Source: a virus (Duplodnaviria > Heunggongvirae > Uroviricota > Caudoviricetes). From it: DNA of 64,000 bases. A model generated the notes under the pieces. It had not been told where the DNA came from. It worked only from the letters and a program-made list of their open reading frames with translations, and ran no database searches. The DNA lies in IMG/VR virus record IMGVR_UViG_2925891887_000001; one strand, given 5' to 3'. Below, piece after piece: positions 2,687 to 61,751 of the stretch; position 1 is the stretch's first letter, and every line of letters begins with the position of its first letter. Both the position numbers and the translations under genes were made by a program.

Positions 2687-2760
2687 CTCAATTGGTAAGT
2701 ATATACTTACTATTAGCGCAATGAATGCGTAGAATTAACGGAAAAAGGAGTTTTCCATCA

Positions 2761-3507
2761 ATGTCTAATACCCATGTAAAAAACATCAAACTTGGTGCCT
2801 GTAAGGTGTCGTTTGGTGGTGTGGATTTGGGTTACACCAAAGGTGGTGTTCAGGTTGAAATCGCAACCGAAACGCTGAAAGTGACCGTAGACCAGCTGGG
2901 CCAGACCACGATCTCCGAGCTGATCCAGGGCCGCAACATCACCATTACTGCGCCGCTGGCTGAATCCGTGTTGAAAAACATGGTCGATCTGATGCCAGGT
3001 TCCACGCTGAGTTCTGGCGAAGATACCGTAACCATCACGTCTGCGCAGGGAGTGAACCTGATCGACGTTGCGAAAGAGTTGGTGCTGACCCCGCAGGATG
3101 CGACGGATTATGTTCTGACCATCCCTAAAGCAGCAACCGCGGGTAACTTCACCATGACCTACCAGTCTGACGACGTTCGCGTGTTCTCAGTTGAGTTTTC
3201 CGCTTACCCGGACGACGCTGGCGTGTTGGGGAAAATGAGCCTCCCAAAGCCGGTTGAGAGCGTCACGCTGACCCCGTCTTCACCGACCGTAAAAGTGGGC
3301 ACTAAAGTTCAATTGAGCGCAACCTTCACCCCGGCCGATGCAACCAATAAGACTGGCGTGTGGAGCTCTGATGCGACTGATAAAGCGACCGTAGATCAGA
3401 ACGGACTGGTAACTGGTAAAGCTGTCGGTTCAGCCAATATCACCTTCACAACTAATGACGGTGCCAAGAAGGCGACCAAAGCCGTCTCTGTAACTGCCGC
3501 AAGCTAA
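2761..3507 (+). CDS. major tail protein with C-terminal Ig-like (Big_2-type) domain
   Basis: ATG after AAAGGAG; lies directly upstream of the chaperone/tape-measure genes (lambda gpV position); Ig-like C-terminal segment. Confidence 0.7.
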   Translation: MSNTHVKNIKLGACKVSFGGVDLGYTKGGVQVEIATETLKVTVDQLGQTTISELIQGRNITITAPLAESVLKNMVDLMPGSTLSSGEDTVTITSAQGVNLIDVAKELVLTPQDATDYVLTIPKAATAGNFTMTYQSDDVRVFSVEFSAYPDDAGVLGKMSLPKPVESVTLTPSSPTVKVGTKVQLSATFTPADATNKTGVWSSDATDKATVDQNGLVTGKAVGSANITFTTNDGAKKATKAVSVTAAS

Positions 3508-3569
3508 ATTGTGATAACCCAAGAGGCCCATGGATGGGCCTCTGTATGAGTTTAAAAGGATTTTAACCA

Positions 3570-3887
3570 ATGACCAAATTACTCGATCTCGATTCCATTC
3601 TGCCTCCGAAGAAAAGCATCAAATTTGGCGGTCAGGAATATCCCATCGTTGAAATGACGGTAGGTCTGTTCGTTTCCATCAAGCAGATGGAAGGCAAAGA
3701 TCTCATGAACATGTCTCCTGTTGAGCAAGTGACAGCTTATGCAGATCTGGTTCGTAAGGTTATCCCTTCAGTACCTGACGAAGTTCTTGAAAAACTGACT
3801 GTTCCGCAACTCCAGCAGATCTTCACCTTCGCTATGGAAGTGATTGATGAAGAAAACGAAAAAGCGGCTGGCGAAGGGGCAAAGTAA
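3570..3887 (+). CDS. tail assembly chaperone (gpG-like)
   Basis: 105-aa acidic protein between major tail and tape measure genes; AAGGA RBS. Confidence 0.65.
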   Translation: MTKLLDLDSILPPKKSIKFGGQEYPIVEMTVGLFVSIKQMEGKDLMNMSPVEQVTAYADLVRKVIPSVPDEVLEKLTVPQLQQIFTFAMEVIDEENEKAAGEGAK

Positions 3888-4237
3888 TTTCCCGCGATGA
3901 ATCCGGGACAAGGACCGTCTCAATAGATCTCGGATTCTATTTCAGTCGTGTAGTTGCTCACTACGCCGTGTCGCCATTAGAGCTACTGAACGTTCCTCTC
4001 ACGATGTTCTGGATGCTCAGTCGCAATATAGACCGTCTGCGTGCGGAAGAGGATGTCCGCAACTTACAAGTCGCTCGTGCGTCCCAGGCGGATGGCGAGG
4101 CTGTGAAGGCGTTCATGGAGGGTTTGCAACTCAGGATTGGAAGACCAGTCGTAACAGATAAAGTCTACGATCCAAGCCAGGATAAGGCAGACCCTGACGC
4201 CAAAGAGCAACTGATGCAAATATTTGGCAGAGGATGA
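3570..4237 (+). CDS. tail assembly chaperone frameshift product (gpGT-like), candidate -1 programmed frameshift near 3858-3863
   Basis: The -1 frame is open from 3851 (after TGA 3848-3850) to 4237 and overlaps the last 34 nt of the gpG-like gene; the A-run GAAAAAG at 3858-3864 allows a -1 slip on AAA. Confidence 0.45.
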
Positions 4238-4244
4238 CAAGGGA

Positions 4245-9017: not shown

Positions 9018-9521
9018 TTATTGATAGTGTTTTATGTTCAGATAATGCCCGATGACTTTGTCATGCAGCTCCACCGATTTTGAGAACGACAGCGACTTCC
9101 GTCCCAGCCGTGCCAGGTGCTGCCTCAGATTCAGGTTATGCCGCTCAATTCGCTGCGTATATCGCTTGCTGATTACGTGCAGCTTTCCCTTCAGGCGGGA
9201 TTCATACAGCGGCCAGCCATCCGTCATCCATATCACCACGTCAAAGGGTGACAGCAGGCTCATAAGACGCCCCAGCGTCGCCATAGTGCGTTCACCGAAT
9301 ACGTGCGCAACAACCGTCTTCCGGAGCCTGTCATACGCGTAAAACAGCCAGCGCTGGCGCGATTTAGCCCCGACATAGCCCCACTGTTCGTCCATTTCCG
9401 CGCAGACGATGACGTCACTGCCCGGCTGTATGCGCGAGGTTACCGACTGCGGCCTGAGTTTTTTAAGTGACGTAAAATCGTGTTGAGGCCAACGCCCATA
9501 ATGCGGGCAGTTGCCCGGCAT
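9018..9521 (-). CDS. insB: IS1 InsB (transposase part, expressed as InsAB by frameshift)
   Basis: 167-aa ORF recognised as IS1 InsB, overlapping insA in another frame. Confidence 0.9.
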
Positions 9522-9715
9522 CCAACGCCATTCATGGCCATATCAATGATTTTCTGGTGCGTACCGGGTTGAGAAGCGGTGTAAGTGAACTGCAGTTGCC
9601 ATGTTTTACGGCAGTGAGAGCAGAGATAGCGCTGATGTCCGGCGGTGCTTTTGCCGTTACGCACCACCCCGTCAGTAGCTGAACAGGAGGGACAGCTGAT
9701 AGAAACAGAAGCCAC
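9440..9715 (-). CDS. insA: IS1 InsA
   Basis: 91-aa ORF ([40 protein letters not shown]...) recognised as IS1 InsA. Confidence 0.9.
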
Positions 9716-9770
9716 TGGAGCACCTCAAAAACACCATCATACACTAAATCAGTAAGTTGGCAGCATCACC

Positions 9771-9779: not shown

Positions 9780-10056
9780 TTAACCTTTACCAGATCATAC
9801 AACGAAATTAATGCAATCGATGACTTCCTGACTGAGCGAGCAGGCGTTGAGTCGTTCTATTGGGTTAATCCAAGAGGAAAACGGATTGTAGTTGTATGTG
9901 ACAGTCATACGGTCAAGCGATATCAGGGGTACTGTGTCTTAACTGCTACATTCAGACAAGTATTTGAGGCTTAAGTATCTGGATAAGTAAGTACTAATTT
10001 ACTATCATTGTGGCGCTGACAGGATGTTAGCGCCTACTTATTTCAAGGATGAAACA

Positions 10057-10755
10057 ATGGGAATTAAAGCTGATATTCAGAGCTTATCTCCCTCTGCACT
10101 CATTGAGTTGTTCGTACTGGATATGTCGAACACAACTTCAGGGGGGAAGTTATTCTTCCACGCCGGAACAAACGAACTGATGCAACCTGTCGTCTGGCAA
10201 GGAGTGACATACGAGCCGTGGCCAATCAAAGCATCAGGCTTTGACAAAACTGGCCAGGGAACGTTGCCACGTCCAAAAATTCAGGTATCGAACTTTGCCG
10301 GAACCGTCTCTGCGGAAGTTCAGGCGAACGACGATCTTGTTGGCTGCCGCATTATTCGCAAGATGACGCTGGCTCGCTTCCTCGATGCCGTTAATTTTAA
10401 AGACGGCAACCCAACAGCAGATCCAAACCAACATTTCCCGGATGAAATGTGGTTTATCGAACAGAAAACGCTCGAAACTCATCAGGTTGTCGAGTTTGAG
10501 TTGTCCAGTGTGTTCGATTTGATGGGGGTGCAACTGCCGTATCGTCAGATCATTAAAAACACCTGCCCGTGGAAATACCGAGGGCCAGAATGCGGCTATA
10601 CCGGTCCATATTTCGACAAAAATAACCAGCAGACGTCTATGTCTGGTGCTGATTACTGCACAAAACGTTATGACGCCTGTAATGCGCGTCGGAATTATTT
10701 TGCCAACGGAGTGATCCATTTTGGCGGGTTTATTGGAGCTACGCGATATGGGTAA
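10057..10755 (+). CDS. minor tail protein L-like
   Basis: C-terminal cysteine cluster (CPWKYRGPECGY, CTKRYDAC) as in lambda gpL; gene order M-L-K-I-J. Confidence 0.75.
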   Translation: MGIKADIQSLSPSALIELFVLDMSNTTSGGKLFFHAGTNELMQPVVWQGVTYEPWPIKASGFDKTGQGTLPRPKIQVSNFAGTVSAEVQANDDLVGCRIIRKMTLARFLDAVNFKDGNPTADPNQHFPDEMWFIEQKTLETHQVVEFELSSVFDLMGVQLPYRQIIKNTCPWKYRGPECGYTGPYFDKNNQQTSMSGADYCTKRYDACNARRNYFANGVIHFGGFIGATRYG

Positions 10756-16871: not shown

Positions 16872-16964
16872 TGGTGGAAAAAAAATTTTATATCGGTAAA
16901 AATAGGTAGGTATATACTTAATGGCGGGCAAGGATAGCCCGCCAAATCAAGGAGCATATTCAAC

Positions 16965-22427: not shown

Positions 22428-22508
22428 TAGGTAAGTACACACCTACAACAAAAGGGTGAAATGTGATATAAATCCGCCATCCCGATTTGACTTTTCATGG
22501 AGGAAAAC

Positions 22509-38252: not shown

Positions 38253-38256
38253 AATT

Positions 38257-38918: not shown

Positions 38919-38931
38919 TGAACAGTGCAAT

Positions 38932-42559: not shown

Positions 42560-42772
42560 ATGAACACCACTATTTCCAGCCTAATCGCTCTTGAGATCGG
42601 ACACGTACAGAAATTAGCTGATGAGTGTGTAGCTGACATCCTCACCGATCTACCGAATGAGCAGATTCAGGTTGGTGTGAATGACACAACTGGCTTTATA
42701 TTCGAACTTAACAACAAACGCTTCACGCTTCTCAATATCGGCTCCGGGTCTTTAGCCGTCAGAATCTGTTAA
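42560..42772 (+). CDS. hypothetical small protein
   Basis: 70-aa ORF divergent from the HTH regulator gene. Confidence 0.4.
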   Translation: MNTTISSLIALEIGHVQKLADECVADILTDLPNEQIQVGVNDTTGFIFELNNKRFTLLNIGSGSLAVRIC

Positions 42773-42870
42773 CCCCTCTTCTCCCTGCGCGAATGGCTTA
42801 GTTCCCTGTTCGCGCAGTGCTACATTAAACACACTAGTAAATAATTTGTTTTCATAACAAAGGATTAGCC

Positions 42871-44979: not shown

Positions 44980-45074
44980 ACAAAACAGCCTTAACGATAA
45001 GTAACCACTTACGATATATAATGATATATTTATATAAGAAGTTGAACGCTCATTAGAGAACAAAGGAAAAACGC

Positions 45075-46310
45075 ATGACGACTACTGCACTGCAAAATGA
45101 AAAAAATCCTTCTGATTACCTTGTTTGCAAGTGGTGCGGCAAATCATTTCACTATTTTAAGTCCCATGTAGCCAATGGTAATTGCGAGGGCATTCCTGAG
45201 TCAGTAAAAGATGCCGATCCTGACACCGTACTGAAAATGTACACAACGCAGTTTCCAGATGAACCAACGCTATCGAAAAAGGCACTTGATGCAATTCAAG
45301 CTAAACGTGCCGAGCAAAAAAGCGAAATGGCCAAATCTTCTGGCTTGACCAGTAGCCCTGGCTACACAGGCACAGTTGAGTACAAGACAGATCTGGTCGC
45401 AGCTCACGAACTGCTAAACGTAACAGTGGAAGAACTCGGAACAAAACGTGGGACGCCGCTCATGGTTAGCGTCAACGTCAATACGCCGTATCCAGAGTTC
45501 GTTCCCGAAGTGAAGAAAGGCTACGTATATGGCGACTTCGAACTGATCAAAGATATTTTCATGATGCTTGAACTTGGCATACCTGGCTATTTGTGGGGTC
45601 ATGCAGGAACAGGCAAATCGTCATTGCCTACACAGCTATGTGCTTTGCTCAATCGTCCGTTGATCCGTGCCCAACATACAGCATCAATGGAAGAGGCACA
45701 TGTTACGGGGCAAATTCTGGCGCGTGATGGCTCTACGTATTTCGAACCTGGCTTGCTTGCGCTCGCAATGAAGCATGGCTGGGTTTACCTCGCGGATGAA
45801 TACGACTTTGCGTTTCCACAAATTCTTGGCGTGTATCAGCCAGTGCTGGAAGGTGAAGCGTTGGTCATCAAAGAGGCAACTCCAGAATGGCGTCGCATTA
45901 CTCCGCATGAACGGTTTGCTTTCATTGGCACTGGCAACACGAACGGATCTGGTGATGAAACCGGCTTGTACCAGGGTACAAACATCCAGAACGCCGCGAA
46001 CTTTTCGCGTTTTGGCATCGTTTCGAATGTGAAATACATGAGCAAAGACGCAGAGATCAACATGTTGACAAATGCAGGCATCGTGGATGAATACGCTGAA
46101 AAGATGGTTAAGTTTGCCGGTATCGTTCGCGATGGATACGAAGAACACCTCATTAGTCAGCCAATTGGCCCTCGTGAACTTTTGTTGTCGGCCAAGATTG
46201 GAATGATGCGAGGCGACTTTGTGACAGGTATTGAGCGTTCTTTCATTAACAAACTCCCTTCAGCTTCTGCACAAGCGGCTCGTGAAGTTGTTCAAAAAAT
46301 ATTTGGTTAA
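45075..46310 (+). CDS. MoxR/CobS-like AAA+ ATPase
   Basis: Walker A GHAGTGKSSL, Walker B-like VYLADEYD; 411 aa. Confidence 0.65.
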   Translation: MTTTALQNEKNPSDYLVCKWCGKSFHYFKSHVANGNCEGIPESVKDADPDTVLKMYTTQFPDEPTLSKKALDAIQAKRAEQKSEMAKSSGLTSSPGYTGTVEYKTDLVAAHELLNVTVEELGTKRGTPLMVSVNVNTPYPEFVPEVKKGYVYGDFELIKDIFMMLELGIPGYLWGHAGTGKSSLPTQLCALLNRPLIRAQHTASMEEAHVTGQILARDGSTYFEPGLLALAMKHGWVYLADEYDFAFPQILGVYQPVLEGEALVIKEATPEWRRITPHERFAFIGTGNTNGSGDETGLYQGTNIQNAANFSRFGIVSNVKYMSKDAEINMLTNAGIVDEYAEKMVKFAGIVRDGYEEHLISQPIGPRELLLSAKIGMMRGDFVTGIERSFINKLPSASAQAAREVVQKIFG

Positions 46311-46490
46311 TCGTGCGTAAAGGATGTTTCGGCTCTCTTATCGCTGCTTCTGAAACTGGTAAGGCTTGTCTGGTGTGTCCAGACAAGCCCGATTGTCACC
46401 AATCAGCAAAAGAAGTTGCGATTTCGATGCATGGGAAGTTCGTAGGCTTCCCCAATGACAAAATCAAAAAAACCAGAAAGGTAAAAACAC

Positions 46491-48854
46491 ATGAAGGCAC
46501 TGATGGTTCGAACTGACTTCTCACTTGGGGAGTCGGCTCTAAAAGCAGAAAACGCGGTGAAGATTGCCAGAGAAGCTGGCTACACCGCTGTAATTTCAGC
46601 AGATAGCATGAATATTGCGAGCGTTATTCCACTACAACGTGCCGCTGGTGACGACATGGCGGTTATTTGTGGTGTGAAACTAAACATTGTTGATGATCCC
46701 ACATACGAGCACCGGGCTAAACTTGCTAAAGAATCTATGAGATGTATGGAATCATTAGAGCGAGGACGTAACTACTCGTTTACCGCTCTAATTAAAAATG
46801 AGAAAGGATATCGCGACATCTGCGAACTAATGACGGCGGCCAACACACGAGAACAGTTCTACTTTGTACCGCGTCTCTCGCTCGAACAGTTGGTTTCTAC
46901 ATATGCCAAAGGCAACATCATCCTGCTTACTTCCGACATCGGTAGCGTGTTCCAACGCAACGATTTTGCAAAAATCATAAGCACACTGATTACAGCGGGT
47001 GGAAAAGACAACTTCTATAGTGTGGTTTATCCGCACCCTACCCCATTCTACGACCAGATTAACGTCCGGGCGATGAAAGTCGCCAGCGCATTGAAAATAG
47101 AGCCAGTGGCGTTCTATCCCGCTTATTACGAATCGATCGACGATGCAGACATTAAAGACATTGCGCACATGGTTACGAACAACATCAAAATCGACCAGCC
47201 GCATCGTCTGCGTATCCCCCACCAGCGAGATAACGCCGTCAATGGTCGCCGCCATCTCCTTGAGGCGCTTAAAGCCTTCTCCGTTCGCATGGATGTGCCG
47301 GTAACAGCTGCAATGGCCTCAACAACGCAGGATACCATTATCGATGCCTGCACATGGCGCTGGCATGAATTGCCGCCAGCACTGCCAAAGATGGCAGACG
47401 ACGAGCCTGCAACGCTGATGAAACTGGCTGTTGCAGGGCTGCGTAAACGTCTTACCACAAAAGAGTTTGGCTACACACCACCTGCTTCTGAGAACAGGGT
47501 TTATGTTGAGCGGCTAAAGTACGAAATGGACACGCTGACTCGCCTGGGATTCTGTGGTTACTTCCTGATGGTGCGCGATCTGATGAATCATAGTCGTGAA
47601 ACTGGCATTCCCGTTGGGCCTGGTCGTGGTTCCTCTGCCGGTTCTCTGGTGGCGTGGTGCATAGGCATAACCAACGTCGACCCAATCCGTCACGGTCTTC
47701 TGTTTGAGCGTTTCATCAACCCTGAGCGTCTCGACTTGCCGGATGCGGACTTGGACTTCAGCCAGGCACGTCGCCATGAGGTGATCGAGTATCTGAATGA
47801 ACGCTACGGCGAAGATTACGTTGCAGGCATTCCGAACTTCACCTACCTGGGCGCAGCCTCTGCACTACGTGATACCGCTCGTATTTATGGTGTGGAGTCC
47901 GCAGATATGGCGGTATCAAAAGAGCTGAAGAACGTCGAGGATGATAGCCTTCCATTGGAGGAGCTGCGCGAACAACTGGCAAGTCTCGACAAATACGCAA
48001 CAAAATATCCTGATGCATTCAATGCAGCCTGCAAGTTACAAAGCCTTATGCGTGGCTTTGGTAGACATGCGGCAGGGATGATCGTAGCAGGTGTTCCTCT
48101 GACAGAACGTACACCGGTTGAACGCCGTGGTGACGCGCGTTGTATCGCATTTGACAAGCGTTACTGCGAGGCTATGGGCCTAATTAAGCTGGACGTGCTT
48201 GGCCTGGCAACTCTCGATTTGCTCGATAGTGCAAAACGCTACATAAAAGAGAACACAGGTGAAGATATCAATCTTGATGCCATTTCTCTTGAAGATCGCA
48301 AGGTGCTGGATGGTTTTGCTGCAGGGTATACACAGGGCGTATTCCAGCTTGAATCAGGCCCAATGCGCAAGCTGCTTAAAGATTTAGGTGGTGGAATTGA
48401 GCCAATGAGCTTTAAAACGGTCGTCGCTACAACTGCGCTCTTCCGACCTGGCCCGATTCAATCCGGCATGTTGGACGATTATGTGTCCGTGGCCAAAGGC
48501 TTCATGGCCCCACATTCCTTACACCCAATGCTGGACGACATCTCTCGCGACACAAACGGAGTTCTGATTTATCAGGAACAGATCATGGCTGCTACGCGAA
48601 TCTTGGCGGGGTTCTCAATGGCGGAAGCAGACTCGGTCAGGAAAGCGATCGGGAAAAAAGATATGGAGAAAATGAAATCCATTGGCGGCGACTTCATTAA
48701 GCGAGCGGAGGAAGGCTGGGTGACAGTGTCACTGGATGATGGTTCTACGAGAAAAATCCATAAAGCAGCACGCCTACTTTGTGCTGATGGTGAGCGTCGC
48801 ACTTATGCCGAAGCAATGGCAATAAATGCCGACATAACGAGCTTCGATATTTGA
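46491..48854 (+). CDS. DNA polymerase III alpha-type (DnaE-like) replicative polymerase, N-terminal part
   Basis: Polymerase core block GRGSSAGSLVAWCIGITNVDPIRHGLLFERFINPER; ORF ends in non-conserved sequence just before the finger-domain motif. Confidence 0.75.
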   Translation: MKALMVRTDFSLGESALKAENAVKIAREAGYTAVISADSMNIASVIPLQRAAGDDMAVICGVKLNIVDDPTYEHRAKLAKESMRCMESLERGRNYSFTALIKNEKGYRDICELMTAANTREQFYFVPRLSLEQLVSTYAKGNIILLTSDIGSVFQRNDFAKIISTLITAGGKDNFYSVVYPHPTPFYDQINVRAMKVASALKIEPVAFYPAYYESIDDADIKDIAHMVTNNIKIDQPHRLRIPHQRDNAVNGRRHLLEALKAFSVRMDVPVTAAMASTTQDTIIDACTWRWHELPPALPKMADDEPATLMKLAVAGLRKRLTTKEFGYTPPASENRVYVERLKYEMDTLTRLGFCGYFLMVRDLMNHSRETGIPVGPGRGSSAGSLVAWCIGITNVDPIRHGLLFERFINPERLDLPDADLDFSQARRHEVIEYLNERYGEDYVAGIPNFTYLGAASALRDTARIYGVESADMAVSKELKNVEDDSLPLEELREQLASLDKYATKYPDAFNAACKLQSLMRGFGRHAAGMIVAGVPLTERTPVERRGDARCIAFDKRYCEAMGLIKLDVLGLATLDLLDSAKRYIKENTGEDINLDAISLEDRKVLDGFAAGYTQGVFQLESGPMRKLLKDLGGGIEPMSFKTVVATTALFRPGPIQSGMLDDYVSVAKGFMAPHSLHPMLDDISRDTNGVLIYQEQIMAATRILAGFSMAEADSVRKAIGKKDMEKMKSIGGDFIKRAEEGWVTVSLDDGSTRKIHKAARLLCADGERRTYAEAMAINADITSFDI

Positions 48855-48902
48855 GAATTAATTTATAAGATAAGAAAACAATTTGTTTAGTGAGTCTTAG
48901 AA

Positions 48903-49637
48903 ATGCCGAGTACGAAGTACAAAATCACAGAAGAATGGTTACGTCAGCGTTACATGGTTGACCTGATGAGAAAAGAAGACATTGCCGCCGAAGCTGGTTG
49001 CAGCAAGGCAAATATTGACCGCTTATTAGCCAAATGGGGGATCAGGCGCGGAAGCGCGCGGATCTCCGCTACCCCAGCCTGGAATCGTGGCAAAAACAAA
49101 AATAATGACGAACGTATGAAGCGTCTCTCCGAAGCCCGGACTGGCACTGGCAACCCTATGTATGGGAAAACCTCGTGGAATGCCGGTCTGCGTGCTGATA
49201 TCGATGAGCGAGTGGCCACCGTTTCGAAAAAGCTAACCGGCAGAACAATCCGCGCGGAGACGAAGGAAAAGCTGGCGGCTGCCAAACGCGGAAAGATCGG
49301 AGAAGAAGCGAACAACTACAAAGGTGGCATCATCGTAAAAACCAACGGCTACATGATGCAGCTGGTTGGTAACAATGGCGTTTCGCAATACGAATACGTT
49401 CATCGATTGATAGCGAAAGAACGTCTCGGTCGGGAGCTACGTGACGATGAACATGTCCACCATATTAACCGCGATACGATAGATAACGCCCCTGGGAATC
49501 TTGTAGCACTTCCAGAAGACGCCCACATTCGCCTGCATAGTGAAATGCGTGAAGAGATATGGAGCTGGGAGCGCCAACGGAACTGGCTGGCCTCCAATGG
49601 GTATGAGTTCGTGAAGATTGATGAGGTGACTGCATGA
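48903..49637 (+). CDS. HNH homing endonuclease inserted within the split DnaE gene
   Basis: HNH motif (HHINRDTIDNAPGNLVALPEDAHIRLH) and repeated basic NUMOD-like motifs (WNRGKNK, MYGKTSWNAGL). Confidence 0.75.
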   Translation: MPSTKYKITEEWLRQRYMVDLMRKEDIAAEAGCSKANIDRLLAKWGIRRGSARISATPAWNRGKNKNNDERMKRLSEARTGTGNPMYGKTSWNAGLRADIDERVATVSKKLTGRTIRAETKEKLAAAKRGKIGEEANNYKGGIIVKTNGYMMQLVGNNGVSQYEYVHRLIAKERLGRELRDDEHVHHINRDTIDNAPGNLVALPEDAHIRLHSEMREEIWSWERQRNWLASNGYEFVKIDEVTA

Positions 49638-50803
49638 AAATTACCGGTGTTGTCGAAGAGAGCAATGGCCTGACGCACGAACGAGCCGAAGAAATCTGGA
49701 ATATGTTTGAGAAATCCGGCGCGTATGCCTTCAACAAATCACACTCTGTTGCTTACTCCTTAATCAGTTATCAATCTATGTGGTTGAAAACTCATTATCC
49801 CGCAGAGTTTTTCGCTGCTGCTCTCACTATTCTTGGCGAAGATAAACACCAGGGGCTGGTTAAAGATGCGCTGACCTATGGCATTCGCGTATTGCCACCA
49901 GACGTTAACGTGTCATCTAACCGAATCGAGATCCGCACGCTTGAAGATGGCAGCCAGGTGCTGTATGCGCCCTTCTCTGCTGTGAAGGGGTGTTCTGAGA
50001 ATGGCTGCCAAGCCATCATGAGAGCGCGAGAAAAAGTTGGCGGCAAATTCGAGTCACTGGCGCAATTCGAAGAAGCTGTCGAGAAACGTGCCTGTAATAG
50101 TCGAGTGCGCGAATCGCTGCAAAAAGTAGGGGCGTTTGCATCCATCGAGCCAGGCAGTCTGCCAGCAACTGATCCAGAGCGCCTACGCGACCAGGCTGAA
50201 TTGATGGGAAACCTTGTCATAGACGCAGTTAAAGCCTCACGTCCGTTTGAGATGAACCCCAAACGTTCGGCTGAAATTAACGTACTCATGACGCGGATGG
50301 CGGCTGAAATGGGCTTAGGTGATGAACTAATCCGCCCCAGCATTGGTATTAAGCCGAAAATCATGATCATTCTGGACAATGCGAACGGCAATGATGCTCG
50401 AACCGGTTACTTTATGGAGAACGGATACGACGACTTTAAGGCCAAGCTATTGACGGCTGGAGATTTACGCATGGGCGATCTCTATGTCACAGGTGTTTGC
50501 AAGAAGGTTAAAGACAAAGAAAAAGACTACACCAAAGACGAGATCGGCCAGTTCACCGACTTTATGCGTGAAGAGATCAATCTGGTGCGTCCGACCTATG
50601 TGCTGACGTGTGGCAGCCGGGCAACTTCATTGTTTAACAACAAAAACAAGCCATCCGATTTGGTCGGCAGGAAGGAGTATCTTCCAGACCTTGACGTTAC
50701 TGTCTTTTACGGGTTTAACCCCAACATTCTTTACTTCAGACCTGAAGAGGGAGAACGACTAGAAGCGATATTAGCCGACGTAGCAGAAACTATTAAGACG
50801 TGA
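49634..50803 (+). CDS. DnaE-like polymerase, C-terminal part
   Basis: Begins with the conserved finger motif region (GAYAFNKSHSVAYSLISYQSMWLKTHYPAEF); own ATG overlapping the HNH stop. Confidence 0.75.
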   Translation: MKITGVVEESNGLTHERAEEIWNMFEKSGAYAFNKSHSVAYSLISYQSMWLKTHYPAEFFAAALTILGEDKHQGLVKDALTYGIRVLPPDVNVSSNRIEIRTLEDGSQVLYAPFSAVKGCSENGCQAIMRAREKVGGKFESLAQFEEAVEKRACNSRVRESLQKVGAFASIEPGSLPATDPERLRDQAELMGNLVIDAVKASRPFEMNPKRSAEINVLMTRMAAEMGLGDELIRPSIGIKPKIMIILDNANGNDARTGYFMENGYDDFKAKLLTAGDLRMGDLYVTGVCKKVKDKEKDYTKDEIGQFTDFMREEINLVRPTYVLTCGSRATSLFNNKNKPSDLVGRKEYLPDLDVTVFYGFNPNILYFRPEEGERLEAILADVAETIKT

Positions 50804-51361: not shown

Positions 51362-51478
51362 TTTTTGATAGATAATAAGTAAGTACTGATCTATCATTTA
51401 ACAGCTCGAAAGAGCCACGAATGAACGAAAGCCCAACGCGCATAGCGCCATCGGCCAAATCACAACAAGGAGAAACAC

Positions 51479-52507
51479 ATGTCTAAGACATTACTTGATT
51501 TGCTTAACAAAACTCGTGAAGACATTGCCGCCAAACGTGGTAACAACGTTGATCTGACTCGCTTAAAAGACGGCGTCAACTATATCCGCATCTTCCCGAA
51601 TAAAGACGACCCAAACGGTAAGTTCTTCCAGACTTTCGGTATGCACTACGTTAAGTATCAGAACGAGGAAGGTAAAGAAGCAACCAACGCTTATATTTGT
51701 GAGCAACATACTCACGGTCGCGCTTGTCAGCTATGCGAAATGGTGATGGAAGGTCGCGCTCGTCACAAGGGTAACAAAGCAATGGAAGAACGCATCGGTC
51801 AAATGCGTGCCACTCCTCGCTACCTGGTCAACGGCATTCTTTCTGCTCGTGAGGATTTCGCAGATGCTGAGAAATGCCAGTTAATCGAGCTGCCGTCTAC
51901 TGTATTCGATGATATCTGCAAAGCAATCACCGAAGACATCGCTGATGATATCGGCAATCCACTGAGCAAAGAGGAAGGCTACGCATTCCTGATTAAACGT
52001 ACTGGCTCTGGTCGCGATACCAAATATGACGTCTCGCCTAAGCGTAAAGTCTACAAAGGCGATATCGAAGATAAATTCTGGAATACCCAGCATGATCTGA
52101 TCGCATACGCAAATCAGGCTGATGAAACTCGTCTTCTGTCGACAGTTCGCACTATGGGTCGTCTGATTGGCATCGCTGCACCAACTGCCGCAGCATCTGC
52201 ACCAGCAATTTCCTCAACCGCGAAAACATCGGCTGCGGCACTACCTGGATTTGGCTCTGTCACTGGTCATACGGAGGGTGCGACTGCTGTAGCTACCGCT
52301 CATACCCCAGCTTCTGAACCAACCAGTCTGGTTGATGAAGAAATCCTCCGTGCCGTTGAAACTGAATTTAAACCAGAAGCAAGTCCCGCTGCCGTTGCAG
52401 TATCAGTCAAAGAGTCTGAAGCAGTCGCAACGACATCTGTAGCAGCCGCATCTGCGACGGAAGATGAAGGTCTGGATGACCTACTGAGAGAGCTGGACTC
52501 TCTGTAA
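51479..52507 (+). CDS. single-stranded DNA-binding protein (T4 gp32-like)
   Basis: Zn-binding His/Cys cluster (HTHGRACQLCE), Ala/Ser-rich linker and acidic C-terminal tail (EDEGLDDLLRELDSL). Confidence 0.6.
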   Translation: MSKTLLDLLNKTREDIAAKRGNNVDLTRLKDGVNYIRIFPNKDDPNGKFFQTFGMHYVKYQNEEGKEATNAYICEQHTHGRACQLCEMVMEGRARHKGNKAMEERIGQMRATPRYLVNGILSAREDFADAEKCQLIELPSTVFDDICKAITEDIADDIGNPLSKEEGYAFLIKRTGSGRDTKYDVSPKRKVYKGDIEDKFWNTQHDLIAYANQADETRLLSTVRTMGRLIGIAAPTAAASAPAISSTAKTSAAALPGFGSVTGHTEGATAVATAHTPASEPTSLVDEEILRAVETEFKPEASPAAVAVSVKESEAVATTSVAAASATEDEGLDDLLRELDSL

Positions 52508-53780: not shown

Positions 53781-56120
53781 ATGGCAAAAGGAAAATCCGC
53801 ACTGGCACTTGCTCTGAAAAAGAAAATCGGTAGCAACGACGAAATTCAGAAAGTAACTCATTGGATTGATACAGGCTTTCCACCGTTAAACAAAGCTATT
53901 TCTGGTCGTTACGATGGCGGCTTCCCATGTGGTCGTATCGTCGAAGTATTCGGTCCTCCAAGTGCAGGGAAATGTGTTACCGCAGACACCATGCTGCTGA
54001 CGGAGCGTGGAATGGTAACAGTGAAAGAGTTGTTTGAGATTGAAGGGTACAAAGCGACATGCACTACTCGCGATGTAGAGCATAACGTTGGACTCATCAA
54101 TGAAAATGGCGTGATAGAGAAGACCTCACACCTGACATGGAACAACCGTCGCAAATTCAAGCGTATTAAGCTGGCATCAGGCGGTTATATCGAGGCTACG
54201 TTCCGTCACCCAATCCGTGTGGTTGACGACTTAGGTAATGTCGTCTGGCGACATGCTGAAAAAATCAGTGTAGGCGACACGATTCCTTCAATGGTTGGCA
54301 CACATCAATTCGGCGATCAGCACCTGGATGCCAATATCGCAAAACTGATGGGCTATTTAATTGCTGACGGATACGTCGCCTCTGAAAATTCAGTGAATTT
54401 TTCTAACACAGATCCTTTCATCAAGGATGAGTACTACCGCCTCATTTCGCTGGTATCAGACAAGATGCCAGTTACGAGAAAACATAACGGCTCGGAAGAC
54501 CATGTGCTGTTTAGCAAAGAGGTGCGTTCGCTGCTTTTTAAAGAATATGGTCTGGAGTATGAGAAAGCTGCTGGCAAGCAGGTTCCGTTGAGTGTGCGTC
54601 GCGCCAATAGCGAGGCTCAAATTGCATTCCTTCGCGGCTACTTTGAGCTGGAATGCCACGTCAATGATGGTCGCTGCATTGAGGTTGTGAGCGCGAGTGG
54701 GCTGCTGCTACAGCAAATTCGCCTCATGCTCCTGAATCTGGGGATTACGTCAACTATCTCTGAAAAACACGTCGCGGGTTATGAAAATACATATTACCGG
54801 CTGTCATTCAGTGGCTCTAATTACGACCTTTTTCTGTCAACGATTGGTTTCGAATCTCCGGCACGTTTATCAGTGGCAACCAAACGGGACATTGGTTTTG
54901 ACCGCACTTACTCAGGCTATGTTCCGCACATCAGCGGCTTAGTGAAATCACTCTACGAGTCGCTCACCAAGACCACCCGTGAAGACTACGCTCTGGTAGA
55001 CCACGTTATTGGCCGCGGCGATCGTGTCGGAATAGACAAACTGCGAGAAATCTATGTCTCCTTCATTGGCAGAAAGAATCGTTTTAACGAGCATCTGTTT
55101 GCACAACTGGCAGCGGTAATTGGCTCTAACTTGTTCTACGACGAAGTCGTGGCTATTGAGGAAGGTGAAGCACCAACGTTCGACGTAGCGATGCCGGAAA
55201 CACACTCTTTCTGGTCTAACGGGATTATCAGCCACAACACATTCCTTGCAACAGCAGCGATGATCTCCGCTCAAAAACAAGATGGTCTGGCGGTATTCCT
55301 CGATCATGAAAACAGTTTTGACGTTGGCCTGGCTGTAGCCAATGGCCTGAACGCAGATGAGGATGACGGTCAGTGGGTCTACAAACAGCCGGATACCTTC
55401 GAAGACTCCGTAGAGCTGATCGGCACAATCCTCAAGCTGGTGCGCGACGAAGAGCTTATTCCGGAAACAGCCCCTATCTGCATCGTAGCCGACTCTCTGG
55501 CGTCGATGGTTCCGAACTCGAAGGCTGAGAAGTTCGACAAGATGGCAGAAGGCACTGCGAAAGACAAAGATCAGCTGAACATGAACGACAACACGGCGCT
55601 GGCGCGCGCGACAAGTGCGAACTTCCCTACTCTGGCGCTTTGGGCGCGTAAGTACAACGCGTGCATCATCTTCTTGAACCAGGTGCGTACCAAAATTGGT
55701 GTGATGTTTGGCGATCCGACTACGTCTCCGGGTGGCGACTCTCCGAAGTTCTACGCTTCTGTACGTATCCGTCTTGGTGCATCGGTGATGAAGGATGGTA
55801 AAGAGAAGATCGGCCAGGACGTAGGCGCAGAATGCATCAAAAACAAAGTTGCACCACCGTATGGCAAATGCACCTGGAAATTCTACTTCGATCCTACTCG
55901 TGGCCTCGACGTTATCGAATCGCTCGTCGAGTACATGCTGGAAGAAGGATACCTGCCAAAGAACGCCAGCGGGCGAGTTGAAATTGGTGACAAGAAATAC
56001 ACCAAATCGCAGATCGTCGAGATGTATCGGGAGAAGCCACTGGCTGAAATCATTGCGGCTTTGCAGGCAATCGACGACCGAAGAGCAAAAGACAACCCCA
56101 CCGAGTCAGTAGAAGAGTAA
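53781..56120 (+). CDS. recA: RecA recombinase precursor containing an intein
   Basis: Exteins (64 + 293 aa) align to bacterial RecA (GRIVEVFGPPSAGK | TFLATAA..., IIFLNQVRTKIGVMFGDPTTSPGG, KFYASVRIRLG); intein residues begin with Cys and end HN before Thr. Confidence 0.85.
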   Translation: MAKGKSALALALKKKIGSNDEIQKVTHWIDTGFPPLNKAISGRYDGGFPCGRIVEVFGPPSAGKCVTADTMLLTERGMVTVKELFEIEGYKATCTTRDVEHNVGLINENGVIEKTSHLTWNNRRKFKRIKLASGGYIEATFRHPIRVVDDLGNVVWRHAEKISVGDTIPSMVGTHQFGDQHLDANIAKLMGYLIADGYVASENSVNFSNTDPFIKDEYYRLISLVSDKMPVTRKHNGSEDHVLFSKEVRSLLFKEYGLEYEKAAGKQVPLSVRRANSEAQIAFLRGYFELECHVNDGRCIEVVSASGLLLQQIRLMLLNLGITSTISEKHVAGYENTYYRLSFSGSNYDLFLSTIGFESPARLSVATKRDIGFDRTYSGYVPHISGLVKSLYESLTKTTREDYALVDHVIGRGDRVGIDKLREIYVSFIGRKNRFNEHLFAQLAAVIGSNLFYDEVVAIEEGEAPTFDVAMPETHSFWSNGIISHNTFLATAAMISAQKQDGLAVFLDHENSFDVGLAVANGLNADEDDGQWVYKQPDTFEDSVELIGTILKLVRDEELIPETAPICIVADSLASMVPNSKAEKFDKMAEGTAKDKDQLNMNDNTALARATSANFPTLALWARKYNACIIFLNQVRTKIGVMFGDPTTSPGGDSPKFYASVRIRLGASVMKDGKEKIGQDVGAECIKNKVAPPYGKCTWKFYFDPTRGLDVIESLVEYMLEEGYLPKNASGRVEIGDKKYTKSQIVEMYREKPLAEIIAALQAIDDRRAKDNPTESVEE
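53973..55238 (+). mobile_element. intein (422 aa) with LAGLIDADG homing endonuclease domain, inserted in the RecA Walker A motif between K and T
   Basis: In-frame element CVTADTMLL...IISHN followed by +1 Thr; LAGLIDADG-like motifs LMGYLIADGYV and FLRGYFELECHV. Confidence 0.8.
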
Positions 56121-56124: not shown

Positions 56125-56148
56125 AAGGCGTCCACAGGACGCCTTTTT
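56125..56148 (+). terminator. Rho-independent terminator
   Basis: AAGGCGTCC-ACA-GGACGCCTT hairpin with TTTTT. Confidence 0.7.
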
Positions 56149-56211
56149 ATCTCTTGAAAATATATAAGTACTTACTTATTATTTTCGCATAACAACCACA
56201 TAGGAAAACAC

Positions 56212-56412
56212 ATGATCAAAATCTATCTATTGGCAGTAGCCACAGGCGTTTCAGTGGCTCTCATCTACGGTTTACTGGTTCCGTCGCTGATTTCTACCAA
56301 GAGTGATTTAGCCGTCATGTTTGGAGTTATCGTTGGTTTTGGTGCTCCTGTAATCGGTCTTATTGCTGGTCGTAAGTTTATCAACTCATTAATCAAAGCA
56401 AAGGGGAAATAA
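56212..56412 (+). CDS. small two-helix membrane protein (partner of the SPFH protein)
   Basis: 66 aa, two hydrophobic helices, 4 nt upstream of the SPFH gene. Confidence 0.5.
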   Translation: MIKIYLLAVATGVSVALIYGLLVPSLISTKSDLAVMFGVIVGFGAPVIGLIAGRKFINSLIKAKGK

Positions 56413-57288: not shown

Positions 57289-57337
57289 TCGCAATTATCT
57301 TATTAAGAAAATAATTTGTTTAAAAGGATAAGAAAAC

Positions 57338-57763: not shown

Positions 57764-57818
57764 TCGCCTATTCATAACTAACAAAATAAGTAAACACTAA
57801 CCACAAAAGGAAAAACAC

Positions 57819-58094: not shown

Positions 58095-58309
58095 GTTTAC
58101 AGTAAAGTTTATATAAGTTAGTATCTACCTATCATGAAGATTTTTATTGAATACTTGTTACTCATCGTTTCAATAGCTTTTGTCATCGACTGCATTTTCA
58201 CTGGTGTCATTCGTAAAGTCTTTTCCCCGGTGCACGACGTAGTCATAAACGCTTTGGCTATCGTGCTCGTATTTAATTCAGCATTTGATGTAATCAAAGA
58301 GGTGGCAGC

Positions 58310-58857: not shown

Positions 58858-58904
58858 ATGCAAACTGACTGCGGCACGTTCCGCAGTCATATTTCATAGT
58901 CGTC

Positions 58905-59437
58905 ACCGCTGACAGCATACACAATCAACTACCGCTGATAGCATATCGAGAGTCTATCTCACCGCTCACAGCATACTTTACTCGATTCTTTACCGCTGAC
59001 AGCATACTTAAGAAATTGCATGAATAATGTGTCCCGGTATGGGTATAACCAGAACAAAATTACCGCTGGCAGCATACGAATGTCTGACATATACCATTAA
59101 TTACCGCTGATAGCATATCCAAACAAAAATTCCTCAATAACACACCGCTGACAGCATACGTTCTATCAGGGAGTAGCAGGCAATAAATGCCTTTCACTAC
59201 AAGCAACCAGCGCAATAGCAATAGAATGTTAGTGAGCGCAAACCTATATGGAATGCACTCTTCGAGGTTAGTAACCACTGGGGAGGTATGACAGAGCATT
59301 GAGTGGTGATAGATGATTTACCGCTCACAGCATACGTTCATCTCACTATACCGCTGGTAGCATATCTTTAACCGTTCACAGCAAACTTTTCAGAAAAATA
59401 GCCGCTGATAGCATACATTTCACCGCTGACAGCATAT
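58905..59437 (+). repeat. iteron array downstream of rep: about 12 direct copies of a 16-bp unit (consensus ACCGCTGACAGCATAC), incA-like
   Basis: Copies read at 58905, 58931, 58961, 58992, 59062, 59103, 59144, 59320, 59350, 59371 (degenerate), 59401, 59422, all in the same orientation. Confidence 0.85.
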
Positions 59438-60531
59438 CAAAGCAGTTTGAGACTATTGGAAAGGATCTCAATCATCTTGATATTTTCAGGCGTCAAATTC
59501 TGCGAAAGTTCGGTTATCTTGTTGATAATGTTCTGTTTGGCATCAATTTCCCCAGCTTTCTCATCTGGTTTTTTGGGTTCGATGTCTTCAGGTTTTGGCG
59601 GTGCGACTTTGAGTTTTGGATTGCGGCTGTGAATCTGGATATAGATCGACCGCCCACGCTTAATCTCGCTGTATTCGAGATAGCCCAAATCTTGGAGAGC
59701 TTTTAAGCCGTTACGTATAGTCTGATTCTGCGAGCTGACATTCCTGCTACTCAAATTGAGTCGCGCACGCAATCGAGCAAGCGATACCGGCGCAGGCTTG
59801 GTTGGAAGACTTTCGATGAAGGTGTACAGAGCCTGTGCTGTTTCTTTGCGTGGTAGCTTATTGATAACCTTTAACTGCAAAAGAACCTTATGGTCAAAGC
59901 GATATAGTTCGGCCAGCTTCGGTTCTGCATAGAACACCACCGTATCTTTCTGCTCGTTGTAGTCCACGCTATTGATGAGGTGCACCATCAGAAGCGAGAT
60001 CTTGTTAGAGCCGTCGACGTTCTTTTCTTCATACGTTCTCTGGAAAGACAGAGTTGTACGCATGATCTTCAAAAGACTGTTTGTAAGCCGGTCGCGGAGT
60101 GTTTTGCGGATCTGTGACGATGGATAGCCACAAAACTTAGCAAATTTCGTGATGCTTAACTCGACACGACCGTTAGGTTCGCCGTATTCTGCCAGCGAAC
60201 GCACAACGCCCACCCACGTTTTGAAATCATGATCCATGTCGAGACGAGGACCGGTTATCTTGATATCGGAATAGCCTTCAGAACGGGCTACTTCGAGCTG
60301 GACAAGCTCCTTTGAAGCATCGATCTCATTTGGCTTGTTACGTTTACTGTATTTTGTTCCCTTAAGCGTGGGGACGAACAACCCCAGTCGCATCAACGCA
60401 ATTGGTTGGACTGTATTGTTGCTATTAGGGACAAGTTCCCCTGTGTACAATTCAAGGGAACCTTCTTCAAAGTTGTCGATGTTATCTTCTACTTCTTTGT
60501 TATTTTTACCTTTTTTATTTTTTGTGGACAT
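59437..60531 (-). CDS. replication initiator (iteron-binding Rep protein) candidate
   Basis: 364-aa ORF flanked on both sides by the same 16-bp iterons; basic N-terminus; start MSTKNKKG at the DnaA-box-like TGTGGACA pair; assignment from replicon architecture, not from a protein motif. Confidence 0.6.
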   Translation of the reverse strand: MSTKNKKGKNNKEVEDNIDNFEEGSLELYTGELVPNSNNTVQPIALMRLGLFVPTLKGTKYSKRNKPNEIDASKELVQLEVARSEGYSDIKITGPRLDMDHDFKTWVGVVRSLAEYGEPNGRVELSITKFAKFCGYPSSQIRKTLRDRLTNSLLKIMRTTLSFQRTYEEKNVDGSNKISLLMVHLINSVDYNEQKDTVVFYAEPKLAELYRFDHKVLLQLKVINKLPRKETAQALYTFIESLPTKPAPVSLARLRARLNLSSRNVSSQNQTIRNGLKALQDLGYLEYSEIKRGRSIYIQIHSRNPKLKVAPPKPEDIEPKKPDEKAGEIDAKQNIINKITELSQNLTPENIKMIEILSNSLKLL

Positions 60532-60551
60532 GTGGACACCTTTGTCATTCA

Positions 60552-60653
60552 ACCGCTGACAGCATACTTGATTTGCCGCTGACAGAATACCAAAAACAGT
60601 TGGCAGCATACGGTGAACCGCTGACAGACTATCAATTACCGCTGACAGCATAC
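60552..60653 (+). repeat. iteron array upstream of rep (origin-proximal, about 5 copies at roughly 21-bp spacing)
   Basis: Copies at 60552, 60575, 60596 (degenerate), 60617, 60638 of the same 16-bp unit. Confidence 0.8.
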
Positions 60654-60693
60654 ATGAACATGACTTCAGACCAGTCGTGGCGCGGCTTACAGC

Positions 60694-60766
60694 GATCGGG
60701 GATCTTATTTGATCTATATAAGGATCTATCTATGGATCTCTTTATTAGGATCTATCCTGTGGATAT
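60694..60766. promoter_or_regulatory. origin-associated AT-rich region with six GATC sites and a DnaA-box-like 9-mer (TGTGGATAT)
   Basis: GATC at 60694, 60701, 60711, 60723, 60735, 60749 within GGATCT-type repeats; TGTGGATAT at 60758-60766. Confidence 0.6.
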
Positions 60767-60852
60767 GTGAATAATTAAAACAGGCATTTACTACCTTCGG
60801 CGCACCTGGTGGGTTATCGTTGCCTCGGCTAACAATCACAGAAAAATGACAT

Positions 60853-61497
60853 ATGGATCTAAAACGCACGCGCTGGGTTCGTCGTCTTGAAGACGGCTCC
60901 TACACTATCGAATCAAATTCCAACCTGAATAAGCAGAAGTTGCTTTGTGACATCTGCGGTATAGCGGCGAAGTGCCCGATCTACGAAACCAGAATTAAAC
61001 TTGATAAGGCTGGTGTGAATTTTCATTTAAACAGTTGCATCAGGTACGTTCCATTACTCGCATTTCGTAAACCGATCATCGGATTGGATGCTCCCTACTT
61101 CAACACACTCCGTTCAGGTGTGACGTGGCGAGATCGTTTATCACCAGACAAGCTGATTTGCCTCGTATCCGCAGACACAGGGAAAATCATCCGTTTTGGG
61201 AAAGTAGACAAGGTTTACTCAGGCCCAGTAGACGAAATGTTGCGGAAACACAGCCGGTTTAATCATCTCTGTATGGGTGGTGAGAAAATCGAGAAGGTAG
61301 AAGAAGTGATCCGCAAATCCTACGGACACTTTCTGACCAAAGATAGCCTGCTCACCGCAATCTACATCAGACATGTAAAACGTGAGTTCGACCTCGAATA
61401 CCACAGCGAAGAAGAGCTTAACCTTGTTGACCCACGTCCAAAAGCTGGCGTCATAAGCATAAACGCAGCGCGTAAAAAGCCCACTGACGCGCTGTAA
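60853..61497 (+). CDS. hypothetical protein
   Basis: 214-aa ORF downstream of the origin region. Confidence 0.5.
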   Translation: MDLKRTRWVRRLEDGSYTIESNSNLNKQKLLCDICGIAAKCPIYETRIKLDKAGVNFHLNSCIRYVPLLAFRKPIIGLDAPYFNTLRSGVTWRDRLSPDKLICLVSADTGKIIRFGKVDKVYSGPVDEMLRKHSRFNHLCMGGEKIEKVEEVIRKSYGHFLTKDSLLTAIYIRHVKREFDLEYHSEEELNLVDPRPKAGVISINAARKKPTDAL

Positions 61498-61751
61498 CCC
61501 TCCAGATCGTATATTGGCGTAGATAGAATCTACGCCCCCTCAAAATAGCTCTCATAGCGTTCTACAGTGATCCTGTCTTATTTTTAGTCATACAGACAAG
61601 CAAAGTTGCGCCACAACAAATAGGTATATACTTACTTATAAATTTTGTATATTAAGGCGCTCGTTTCATTCCTAACATACCGTTATGCATAGTTGTTTAC
61701 CTTCTCATTGCTCTTAGAATTTGTATCAAAATAATCACAAAGGAAAAACAC

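Follow-up and report, generated by a model that had tools for sequence, protein, structure and literature searches.

The 64-kb stretch of DNA analyzed here (hereafter the window; IMG/VR record IMGVR_UViG_2925891887_000001, Caudoviricetes, 46% GC) carries a family of AT-rich palindromes in its intergenic regions, which our analysis confirmed as a real feature of the DNA. We consider it rather more probable than improbable that these palindromes are promoter-embedded operators through which one phage-encoded XRE-type repressor would silence the lytic operons. A query with window positions 37000–45000 (8 kb) returned ~98% identity over three quarters of its length to Escherichia phages Cyrano and CMS-2020a, and Cyrano is the pLF82 plasmid prophage; judged by its sequence, the window is an SSU5-like phage-plasmid of E. 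coli. By the Cyrano annotation, the gene order in the window is head-tail, tail, tail fibre, and lysis genes, next partition and toxin-antitoxin genes, and then the replication/recombination block, tRNA cluster, integrase/repressor module, repA with iterons, and sbcCD. SSU5-like phage-plasmids constitute the largest known phage-plasmid supercommunity (PMC7969092), and its members include Y. pestis pMT1/pFra, S. Typhi pHCM2, and Klebsiella and E. coli elements with resistance genes (PMC9600943). Our literature searches returned no description of the motif and no paper on lysis-lysogeny control in SSU5-like phage-plasmids, and the palindrome network appears to be undescribed.

A preliminary description of the window had listed 13 palindromes built on AAGTA/TACTT half-sites, and every one of them was present where it had been placed. 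Those half-sites held up as the core letters of the motif, but the full unit in the aligned sites was a 20–26 bp palindrome with half-sites (AT)GATA(A/G)GTAAGT and ACTTAC(T/C)TATC(AT) on either side of the dyad center. Each half-site is composed of two tandem 4-bp units, TAAG-TAAG. Among 69 non-redundant enteric-type sites, information was limited to -13 to +13 from the dyad center, and the upstream half (relative to gene direction) was conserved better than the downstream half. The central dinucleotide was also polar at sites close to a start codon, with CA in 20 and TG in 4. Enrichment was evaluated with shuffles and a k-mer comparison, both independent of the original site list. The pattern ATARGTA-N6-TACYTAT with ≤2 mismatches had 11 matches vs 0.49 expected and GATAAGTA had 9 copies vs 1.52 expected, counts that 0/100 shuffles reached in either case. 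An unbiased comparison of intergenic and coding k-mers gave TACTTA (14 intergenic vs 2 coding, p = 1e-12) and TAAGTA as top hexamers, the opposite of the equal frequency in coding DNA that the preliminary description had named as speaking against its proposal. Every strong site was intergenic, as that description had it: with a weight matrix built from the sites, the best truly coding match scored 10 bits and none inside coding sequence reached ≥17 bits. The shuffles and the intergenic-vs-coding tests ruled out chance or AT-richness as the source of the palindromes, and a small mobile element (miniature inverted-repeat transposable element) was ruled out by the copies having just 20–26 bp in common and unrelated flanks. 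A strict 9-of-10 palindrome finder was too stringent and did not recover palindrome families. The scans contributed three further sites, at 57785–57806, 58112–58133, and 42341–42354 (a 14-bp core copy). The sites and the gene of the candidate repressor are given below, with promoter-like matches written as hexamer, spacer length, and hexamer, and with counterparts in Cyrano, SSU5, and the IMG/VR locus L072.

2695–2710, plus strand: palindrome GTAAGTATATACTTAC, upstream of an Ig-domain tail protein gene (open reading frame (ORF) 2725–3507); overlapped by promoter-like TTGAAT-18-TATACT at 2678–2707; orthologous sites at Cyrano 9021 and SSU5 9066.
9982–10003, plus strand: GATAAGTAAGTACTAATTTACT, left half perfect and right half degenerate, upstream of the minor tail protein L gene (10024–10755); promoter-like TGGATA-17-TATCAT at 9980–10008, then a GC-rich hairpin at 10012–10034; Cyrano 15528, SSU5 15588.
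16901–16922, plus strand: AATAGGTAGGTATATACTTAAT, upstream of the tail fibre gene (16965–21263); Cyrano 22447, SSU5 21936.
22426–22447, plus strand: GATAGGTAAGTACACACCTACA, upstream of the holin/lysis cassette (from 22497); Cyrano 26656, a variant at SSU5 27473.
28425–28446, plus strand: GATAAGTAAGTAACTACCTACC, dyad center 23 nt from the ATG at 28458, heading the operon with DnaB-like helicase and primase genes; Cyrano 31295, SSU5 33599.
33795–33816, plus strand: GATAAGTAGATACATACTTAAG, upstream of ORF 33857–34639, followed by TTTTTGTAAGAAT, which is extended -10-like; Cyrano 34729, SSU5 38177, L072 1096.
34672–34693, plus strand: half-site-dominated GATAAGTAAGCACAAGATTATT, upstream of ORF 34707–35177 and a ligase gene; Cyrano 35606, SSU5 39086.
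37317–37338, plus strand: GATAAGTATTTACTTACTTATC, the best copy, with the top weight-matrix score on both strands.
40305–40326, plus strand: GATAAGTATGCACATACCTATC, upstream of a glutaredoxin gene (ATG 40369; Pfam match); the near-consensus promoter match TTGATC-16-TATAAT at 40265–40292 lies upstream (10/12 positions), and the dyad thus spans ~+7 to +28.
41923–42309, minus strand: XRE-type helix-turn-helix (HTH) gene, 128 aa, homologue of CYRAN_45 ('putative repressor').
42354–42341, minus strand: core palindrome GGTAAGCACTTACC, the 14-bp copy GGTAAGTGCTTACC, directly after the HTH gene promoter.
42383–42356, minus strand: HTH gene promoter TTTACA-16-TAATAT, within 42341–42383.
44996–45017, plus strand: GATAAGTAACCACTTACGATAT, upstream of a CobS-like AAA ATPase gene (45075–46310) and followed by TATAAT; Cyrano 45263, SSU5 45123, L072 11336.
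51374–51395, plus strand: AATAAGTAAGTACTGATCTATC, upstream of a gp32-like single-stranded DNA-binding protein (SSB) gene (51479–52507); promoter-like TAGATA-17-TATCAT at 51369–51397, its spacer filled by the palindrome.
56159–56184, plus strand: AATATATAAGTACTTACTTATTATTT, between a terminator at 56125–56145 and ORF 56212–56412; promoter-like TTGAAA-17-TATTAT at 56154–56182 (10/12 positions).
57785–57806, plus strand: new half-site copy AAATAAGTAAACACTAACCACA, dyad center 24 nt from the ATG at 57819; Cyrano 59072, SSU5 57745.
58112–58133, plus strand: new copy TATAAGTTAGTATCTACCTATC, abutting the ATG at 58134 and scoring better when read on the minus strand; promoter-like matches at 58096–58124 and 58108–58135; Cyrano 59398, SSU5 58073.
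61619–61640, plus strand: AATAGGTATATACTTACTTATA, upstream of an sbcD-like gene (61752–62837) and followed by TTTTGTATATTAAGG; Cyrano 63198, SSU5 63079.

In the complete genome of Cyrano and in Salmonella phage SSU5, the motif was conserved at intergenic positions orthologous to those of the window. Both genomes had ~22–25 sites each within 2–85 kb plus one before the ParB-terS late operon, and zero sites in the 85–105 kb region. The units headed by the motif were nearly all of those of the lytic cycle and included tail, tail fibre, lysis, and replication/recombination genes, the tRNA region and, in Cyrano, nucleotide-metabolism genes such as nrdA and thyX. The best copy, at 37317, heads a 1.6-kb ORF-free region (37339–38931) with genes for tRNA-Asn, Tyr, Thr, and Ser (38086–38739). 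These tRNA genes resemble those of P1, P7, and D6, and expression of the region in the LF82 lysogen has been reported under CYRAN_40, an annotated gene that overlaps it. When IMG/VR was scanned for exact matches to the 22-mer of this copy, dozens of SSU5-like contigs were found at the same locus. Two versions of the motif, scanned against IMG/VR, found >200 loci, and about half of the first-scan loci were SSU5-like. Many others were 57–65% GC and had no nucleotide similarity to the window, with several exact copies of GTAAGTAAGYRCTTACTTAC each; in viral contigs of 57–65% GC, 112/112 unique sites were intergenic. The one GC-rich locus searched (L193) matched the Rhizobium phages B1VFA, V1VFA-S, and RHph_X66 and plasmid prophages such as Sinorhizobium pLM21S1. 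The motif was also present in Klebsiella-type loci, was enriched intergenically in Y. pestis pFra, Moellerella, and a Klebsiella plasmid (KpPF25), and took the form ATTAGTAAGYRCTTACTAAT in Acinetobacter phage-plasmids, with the inner core unchanged.

Rhizobium phage RHEph10 contained zero copies of the TAAG-type motif and ~18 copies of another palindrome at orthologous positions and in the same architecture, with half-sites GTCAGTCAAT and ATTGACTGAC, i.e. GTCA(G/A)TCAAT and ATTGA(C/T)TGAC. One example, between terL and portal, reads TTGACG-17-TACCAT. Both tandem units were altered together (GTAA to GTCA) and the -35 and -10 were unchanged. With GTCAGTCAAT in RHEph10 and GTAAGTAAGT in the window type, the exchange looks like a swap in operator specificity. 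RHEph10 exchanges the palindrome yet infects the same host genus as motif-bearing phages, so the reader should be encoded by the phage; a host factor was rejected as unlikely because RHEph10 and B1VFA-type phages share one host genus and carry different palindromes.

The relation of the palindromes to promoters was clearest in the GC-rich relatives, where sites such as TTGCAA-[GTAAGTAAGCACTTACT]-TACAAT have the palindrome as the 17-bp spacer between a sigma-70 -35 and a -10 that starts with the palindrome's last three bases. We used the mirrored strand as a composition-matched control for this overlap. Promoter-like matches over the dyad were found in the gene direction at 21/69 enteric, 25/83 GC-rich, and 5/15 window sites, vs 8/69, 6/83, and 0/15 in the mirrored direction, and TTG stood at the -35 position of 20/83 GC-rich sites in the gene direction vs 0/83 mirrored. 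The start of the -10 relative to the dyad center fell into two discrete modes. At +7, the commonest (class A), the 17-bp spacer is occupied by the dyad, whose final three bases (TAT/TAC) open the -10 hexamer; at -14 (class B), the dyad follows closely on the -10 and lies over the transcription start. The palindromes are thus dyad-symmetric sites overlapping the -35, spacer, -10, or +1 of host-type promoters. Such variation in dyad position relative to the -10 is typical of repressor operators, and near-consensus promoters such as TTGCAA-17-TACAAT should not need an activator. Across the whole window, sigma-70-like promoter matches were depleted (51 vs ~97 expected from dinucleotide shuffles; 8 vs 22.6, 24 vs 41.6, 18 vs 27.1, and 1 vs 5.5 in the four counts made), which suggests selection against spurious promoters. 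The preliminary description had offered operators of one dimeric regulator or a phage-specific promoter class as alternatives; the evidence supports a combination of the two, with the operator role favored.

The best candidate reader of the palindromes is the 128-aa HTH protein encoded at 41923–42309. Its Pfam match (HTH_19) was weak, NCBI names it an XRE regulator, and its AlphaFold model had an N-terminal Cro/CI-type fold with matches including P22 c2, 434 Cro, C.AhdI, and Stl. Its homologue CYRAN_45 is expressed in the LF82 lysogen and was treated there as the master repressor (PMC9928086). The element therefore encodes a repressor-type HTH protein with an operator-like palindrome at its own promoter, where TTTACA-16-TAATAT is followed by the core copy. 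This arrangement was kept in Klebsiella-type loci, whose protein is 66–69% identical, and an own-type palindrome lay upstream of the HTH homologue in Acinetobacter, pLM21S1, the IMG/VR locus L222, and RHEph10, which were those checked outside the enteric group. The homologue adjoined cobT or an integrase gene in E. coli, Klebsiella, Salmonella, Yersinia, Moellerella, Acinetobacter, pLM21S1, B1VFA-type phages, and RHEph10. Records with an HTH homologue numbered 969 plasmid and 19 phage; among them, Thauera pTX1 is a conjugative plasmid and was rejected as a relative. Conservation was highest in the HTH segment; elsewhere, members of the family are 25–40% identical. The start of helix 3 was GWTQSNM solely in the lineage with the swapped operator (RHEph10 type) and G(Y/F/I)(K/E/T)(N/A)xN(N/M) in all TAAG-type elements, and the Moellerella sequence GYTAHNN means that the helix-3 positions are not strictly diagnostic. 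SSU5 is without the integrase-repressor module yet kept all of the sites, so the HTH protein is not a required activator. No other clear DNA-binding candidate emerged when 20 small proteins were scanned against Pfam and PHROG, and PDB sequence searches returned no matches. A phage sigma factor was also rejected as the common reader: tblastn found no enteric homologue, and pLM21S1 has a sigma factor yet carries the TAAG motif. The sigma factor gene lies between cobS and dnaE in RHEph10 (L241; 39826–40461) and pLM21S1 (L244; 6449–7090), and the enteric members have a 67-aa ORF alone at this position (window 46313–46516).

In the plasmid prophage, the XRE-type repressor would occupy all of the sites and block host RNA polymerase. 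It would probably bind as a dimer of dimers because each half-site has two identical 4-bp units. Of the proposal that one dimeric regulator reads the sites, the single regulator gained a candidate in the HTH gene with a core palindrome in its own promoter, and the simple dimer may have to give way to the tetramer that the tandem units suggest. The core copy would let the repressor limit its own synthesis. If the repressor were lost, as might follow DNA damage (ciprofloxacin induces Cyrano), some 25 promoters would be released simultaneously.

The nearest analogue to such a network is that of the C1 repressor in P1, also a plasmid prophage silenced by one repressor at many operators over a ~100-kb genome, with operators that overlap the sigma-70 promoters of lytic functions and an autoregulated repressor gene. 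The P1 record annotates 17-bp C1 operators such as Ossb, Oc4, OrepL, Orlf, Olpa, and Oc1a-e. The P1 C1 operator is asymmetric (ATTGCTCTAATAAATTT), and the C1 and XRE HTH proteins are unrelated. In P1, control of the late operons is indirect and runs through Lpa, whereas here a 20–26 bp palindrome is built into the spacer and -10 and also stands directly before structural and lysis operons. The stoperators bound by gp71 of mycobacteriophage L5 are 13-bp, asymmetric, orientation-dependent sites that block elongation. They resemble the palindromes in number (~25–30 copies of one repressor site), in their placement in short intergenic gaps throughout lytic operons, and in also occupying gaps without an obvious promoter. 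The palindromes differ in being symmetric and mostly positioned over promoter elements; they score on both strands and their polarity is weak (central CA/TG, upstream half), and we did not class them as stoperators. The candidate protein has the same HTH fold as Cro/CI-type (XRE) repressors such as 434 and P22 c2, whose palindromic operators also overlap promoters, and P22-type half-sites also contain TAAG...CTTA. Lambdoid repressors act at 2–6 operators in one immunity region, in contrast to ~25 promoters genome-wide here, and the present sites are longer than Cro/CI operators and built from tandem 4-bp units. Paired dyads bound as tetramers are known from the controller C-proteins of restriction-modification systems.

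Alternatively, the palindrome could be what an activator recognizes in a class of phage promoters comparable to the P1 late promoters, with an early phage protein made after induction binding the dyad beside the -10 and recruiting or remodeling host RNA polymerase at all middle and late operons. We judge this unlikely, though it is the rival that we take most seriously. P1 late promoters, which depend on Lpa and host SspA, share with the palindromes an AAGT/ACTT inverted repeat directly upstream of a TAnnnT -10, a -35 that is usually absent (here, in the enteric members on average), and many copies upstream of morphogenesis and lysis operons. Annotated examples read AAGT(T/G)ACTT, 4 nt, and TAnnAT (e.g. 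LPs, AAGTTACTTatctTACAAT), and their dyad center near -21 compares with -19.5 here. Middle or late promoter classes typically have a copy number like the ~25 per genome found here before lytic operons, the better conserved upstream half and polar central dinucleotide also suit an activator, and tail fibre, tRNA, and Cra modules are common to P1 and these elements. The geometry nevertheless differs: the P1 box spans 9 bp around an odd center at ~-21 and lies 4 nt from the -10, and here the inner AAGYRCTT of a 20–26 bp palindrome has an even center at -19.5 and lies 3 nt away, with at least two dyad positions relative to the -10. The P1 late class is restricted to late operons and has no -35, in contrast to motif copies before helicase, ligase, SSB, sbcD, nrdA, and thyX genes and to the good -35 hexamers at 17-bp spacing in many GC-rich and some window copies (TTGAAA at 56154). 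Lpa homologues were not detected in tblastn searches of the window, Cyrano, and SSU5 (best E = 0.7) or with the Lpa family hidden Markov model against 25,740 ORFs from these and the fetched IMG/VR loci (best E = 0.9). P1 Lpa itself matched PF25716 at 3e-57, and the Lpa family was confined to P1-like elements. Given the geometry, the Lpa negative, the -35 hexamers, and the replication-gene sites, we regard the similarity to P1 late promoters as likeness rather than class membership, and it is this likeness that keeps an activator model alive.

Operators read by a different phage protein are a less likely explanation still. One candidate is the product of the small gene that diverges from the HTH gene (ORF 42560–42772 here), as a Cro-like switch partner; others are small helical proteins that by eye may be winged-helix-like, encoded at 36656–36871 and in the CYRAN_123 family beside terS. 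Tandem 4-bp units suit the tetrameric binding typical of ribbon-helix-helix proteins, and the divergent gene encodes such a protein in rhizobial members (pLM21S1, RHEph10, and L222); no enteric counterpart of it was detected. CYRAN_123 homologues are kept in GC-rich relatives, followed by a motif copy upstream of terS, and ORF 36656–36871 lies just upstream of the best site. However, these candidates had no sequence, Pfam, or PDB support as DNA binders, and none has a core palindrome in its own promoter as the HTH gene does. Least probable of all, and very improbable in our estimate, is a role at the level of RNA or DNA structure, as an intercistronic hairpin (processing, stability, or weak termination) or a cruciform. 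Several copies do lie between a stop codon and the next ribosome-binding site, T runs follow some of them (37339, 33817, and 40327), and cruciform extrusion is possible for AT-rich perfect palindromes. Yet an arm-pair test on 112 sites found no arm covariation beyond independent half-site preferences, and the center pair was anti-correlated, from the CA/TG preference; an RNA hairpin acting as a terminator or processing site was rejected because pairing was not kept by compensatory changes. A·C mismatches were tolerated (e.g. 40306 and 28426), sequence rather than pairing was kept across genomes of 46–65% GC, and true GC-rich terminators lie elsewhere (56125, 57263, 25340, and 38894). The directional -35 elements beside the sites also argue against this role. 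The lack of arm covariation together with the half-site-only copies (34672, 57785, and 44996) points to a protein reading double-stranded DNA and not to a hairpin.

Several observations weigh against an XRE-type repressor acting through promoter-embedded operators, a proposal reached wholly in silico. The average -35 signal was absent from the logo of the 69 enteric sites, only about a third of enteric sites overlapped a promoter match, and many could therefore be activator-dependent. The half-site letters and their position resemble the activator-bound -22 box of P1 late promoters. The sites at 58112, 28425, 57785, and 34672 end 12–25 nt before a start codon, so a class A start would fall in or past the ribosome-binding site. 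HTH homologues were not found within the locus DNA of some GC-rich loci (e.g. L009), and a single HTH would be expected to cover less than a 10-bp half-site. The operator was nearly invariant across hosts of three orders vs 25–40% identity in the HTH family, and such invariance is unusual for immunity repressors. The operator swap with a matching helix-3 change is a single evolutionary event.

Other repeats were found in the window. A long inverted repeat, CCTGCTTCCGTAT...ATACAGAAGCAGG (window 28287–28341), occurs at two places per genome (Cyrano 31174 and 78094; SSU5 33472 and 78318), and in its AT-rich loop the motif recurs in compressed form as AATAAGTTACTTATT, with TTTGTATATAC after it. 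The window also has another dispersed motif, AAAAYAATTTGTTT (palindrome AAACAA-T-TTGTTT), with 5 matches vs 0.17 expected, all on the plus strand. It precedes parA, the dnaB-like gene, cobT, ORF 48903, and ORF 57338, none of which carries the main palindrome, and may be the site of a second regulator or a translational operator. Many genes of the replication block are preceded by a near-identical translation-initiation region, ACAAAGGAAAAACAC-ATG.

25442–25455, 29209–29222, 42838–42851, 48875–48888, and 57308–57321, plus strand: copies of AAAAYAATTTGTTT, 30–50 nt upstream of start codons.
45059–45074, 51462–51478, 56197–56211, 57802–57818, and 61737–61751: copies of the ACAAAGGAAAAACAC-ATG region.

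The repA region (59437–60651, minus strand) is flanked by about ten 16-bp iterons, ACCGCTGACAGCATAC, at 58880–59060 and 59318–59436, with GATC-rich GGATCTAT repeats upstream at 60700–60760, and together these look like a plasmid origin. The DNA polymerase III alpha gene is one 3.5-kb gene in Cyrano and SSU5 and three ORFs in the window (46491–48854, 48903–49637, and 49634–50803), and the RecA-like ORF (53781–56120) is 779 aa vs 358 aa in SSU5; both might stem from inteins or inserted homing elements. Relative to Cyrano, the window has two minus-strand insertions, an ORF pair between minor tail genes M and L (9018–9744) and a 420-aa ORF that replaces the highly expressed CYRAN_43 (38932–40194), which are probably accessory cargo (moron) genes. 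Outside the window, the Cyrano 'transcriptional regulator' CYRAN_114 (100780–101301) belongs to the FljA family (PF03614, E = 1e-80), a repressor of phase-1 flagellin and unexpected in a phage-plasmid.

If confirmed, operators embedded in the promoters of these phage-plasmids would provide a full map of lytic promoters and operators together with a candidate master repressor, make immunity groups (GTAA and GTCA types) predictable from sequence, and give a handle for curing or inducing the plasmids. They would also extend the P1-style principle of one repressor and many dispersed operators to an unrelated and far more widespread lineage, and they pose the puzzle of an operator that hardly varies between alpha- and gamma-proteobacterial hosts. 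A more far-reaching version, plausible in our view but somewhat short of probable, is that one XRE-type repressor, as a tetramer, directly clamps ~25 promoter-embedded, tandem-unit operators in a single immunity network, with nearly every base retained in the SSU5/pHCM2/pKpn/pMT1 supergroup, the Acinetobacter AB group, and rhizobial phage-plasmids, with discrete unit swaps (GTAA to GTCA) defining immunity types. If true, the largest phage-plasmid lineage, including carriers of antibiotic-resistance and virulence genes, would have this network as its master switch, and the switch would be predictable and manipulable from sequence alone.

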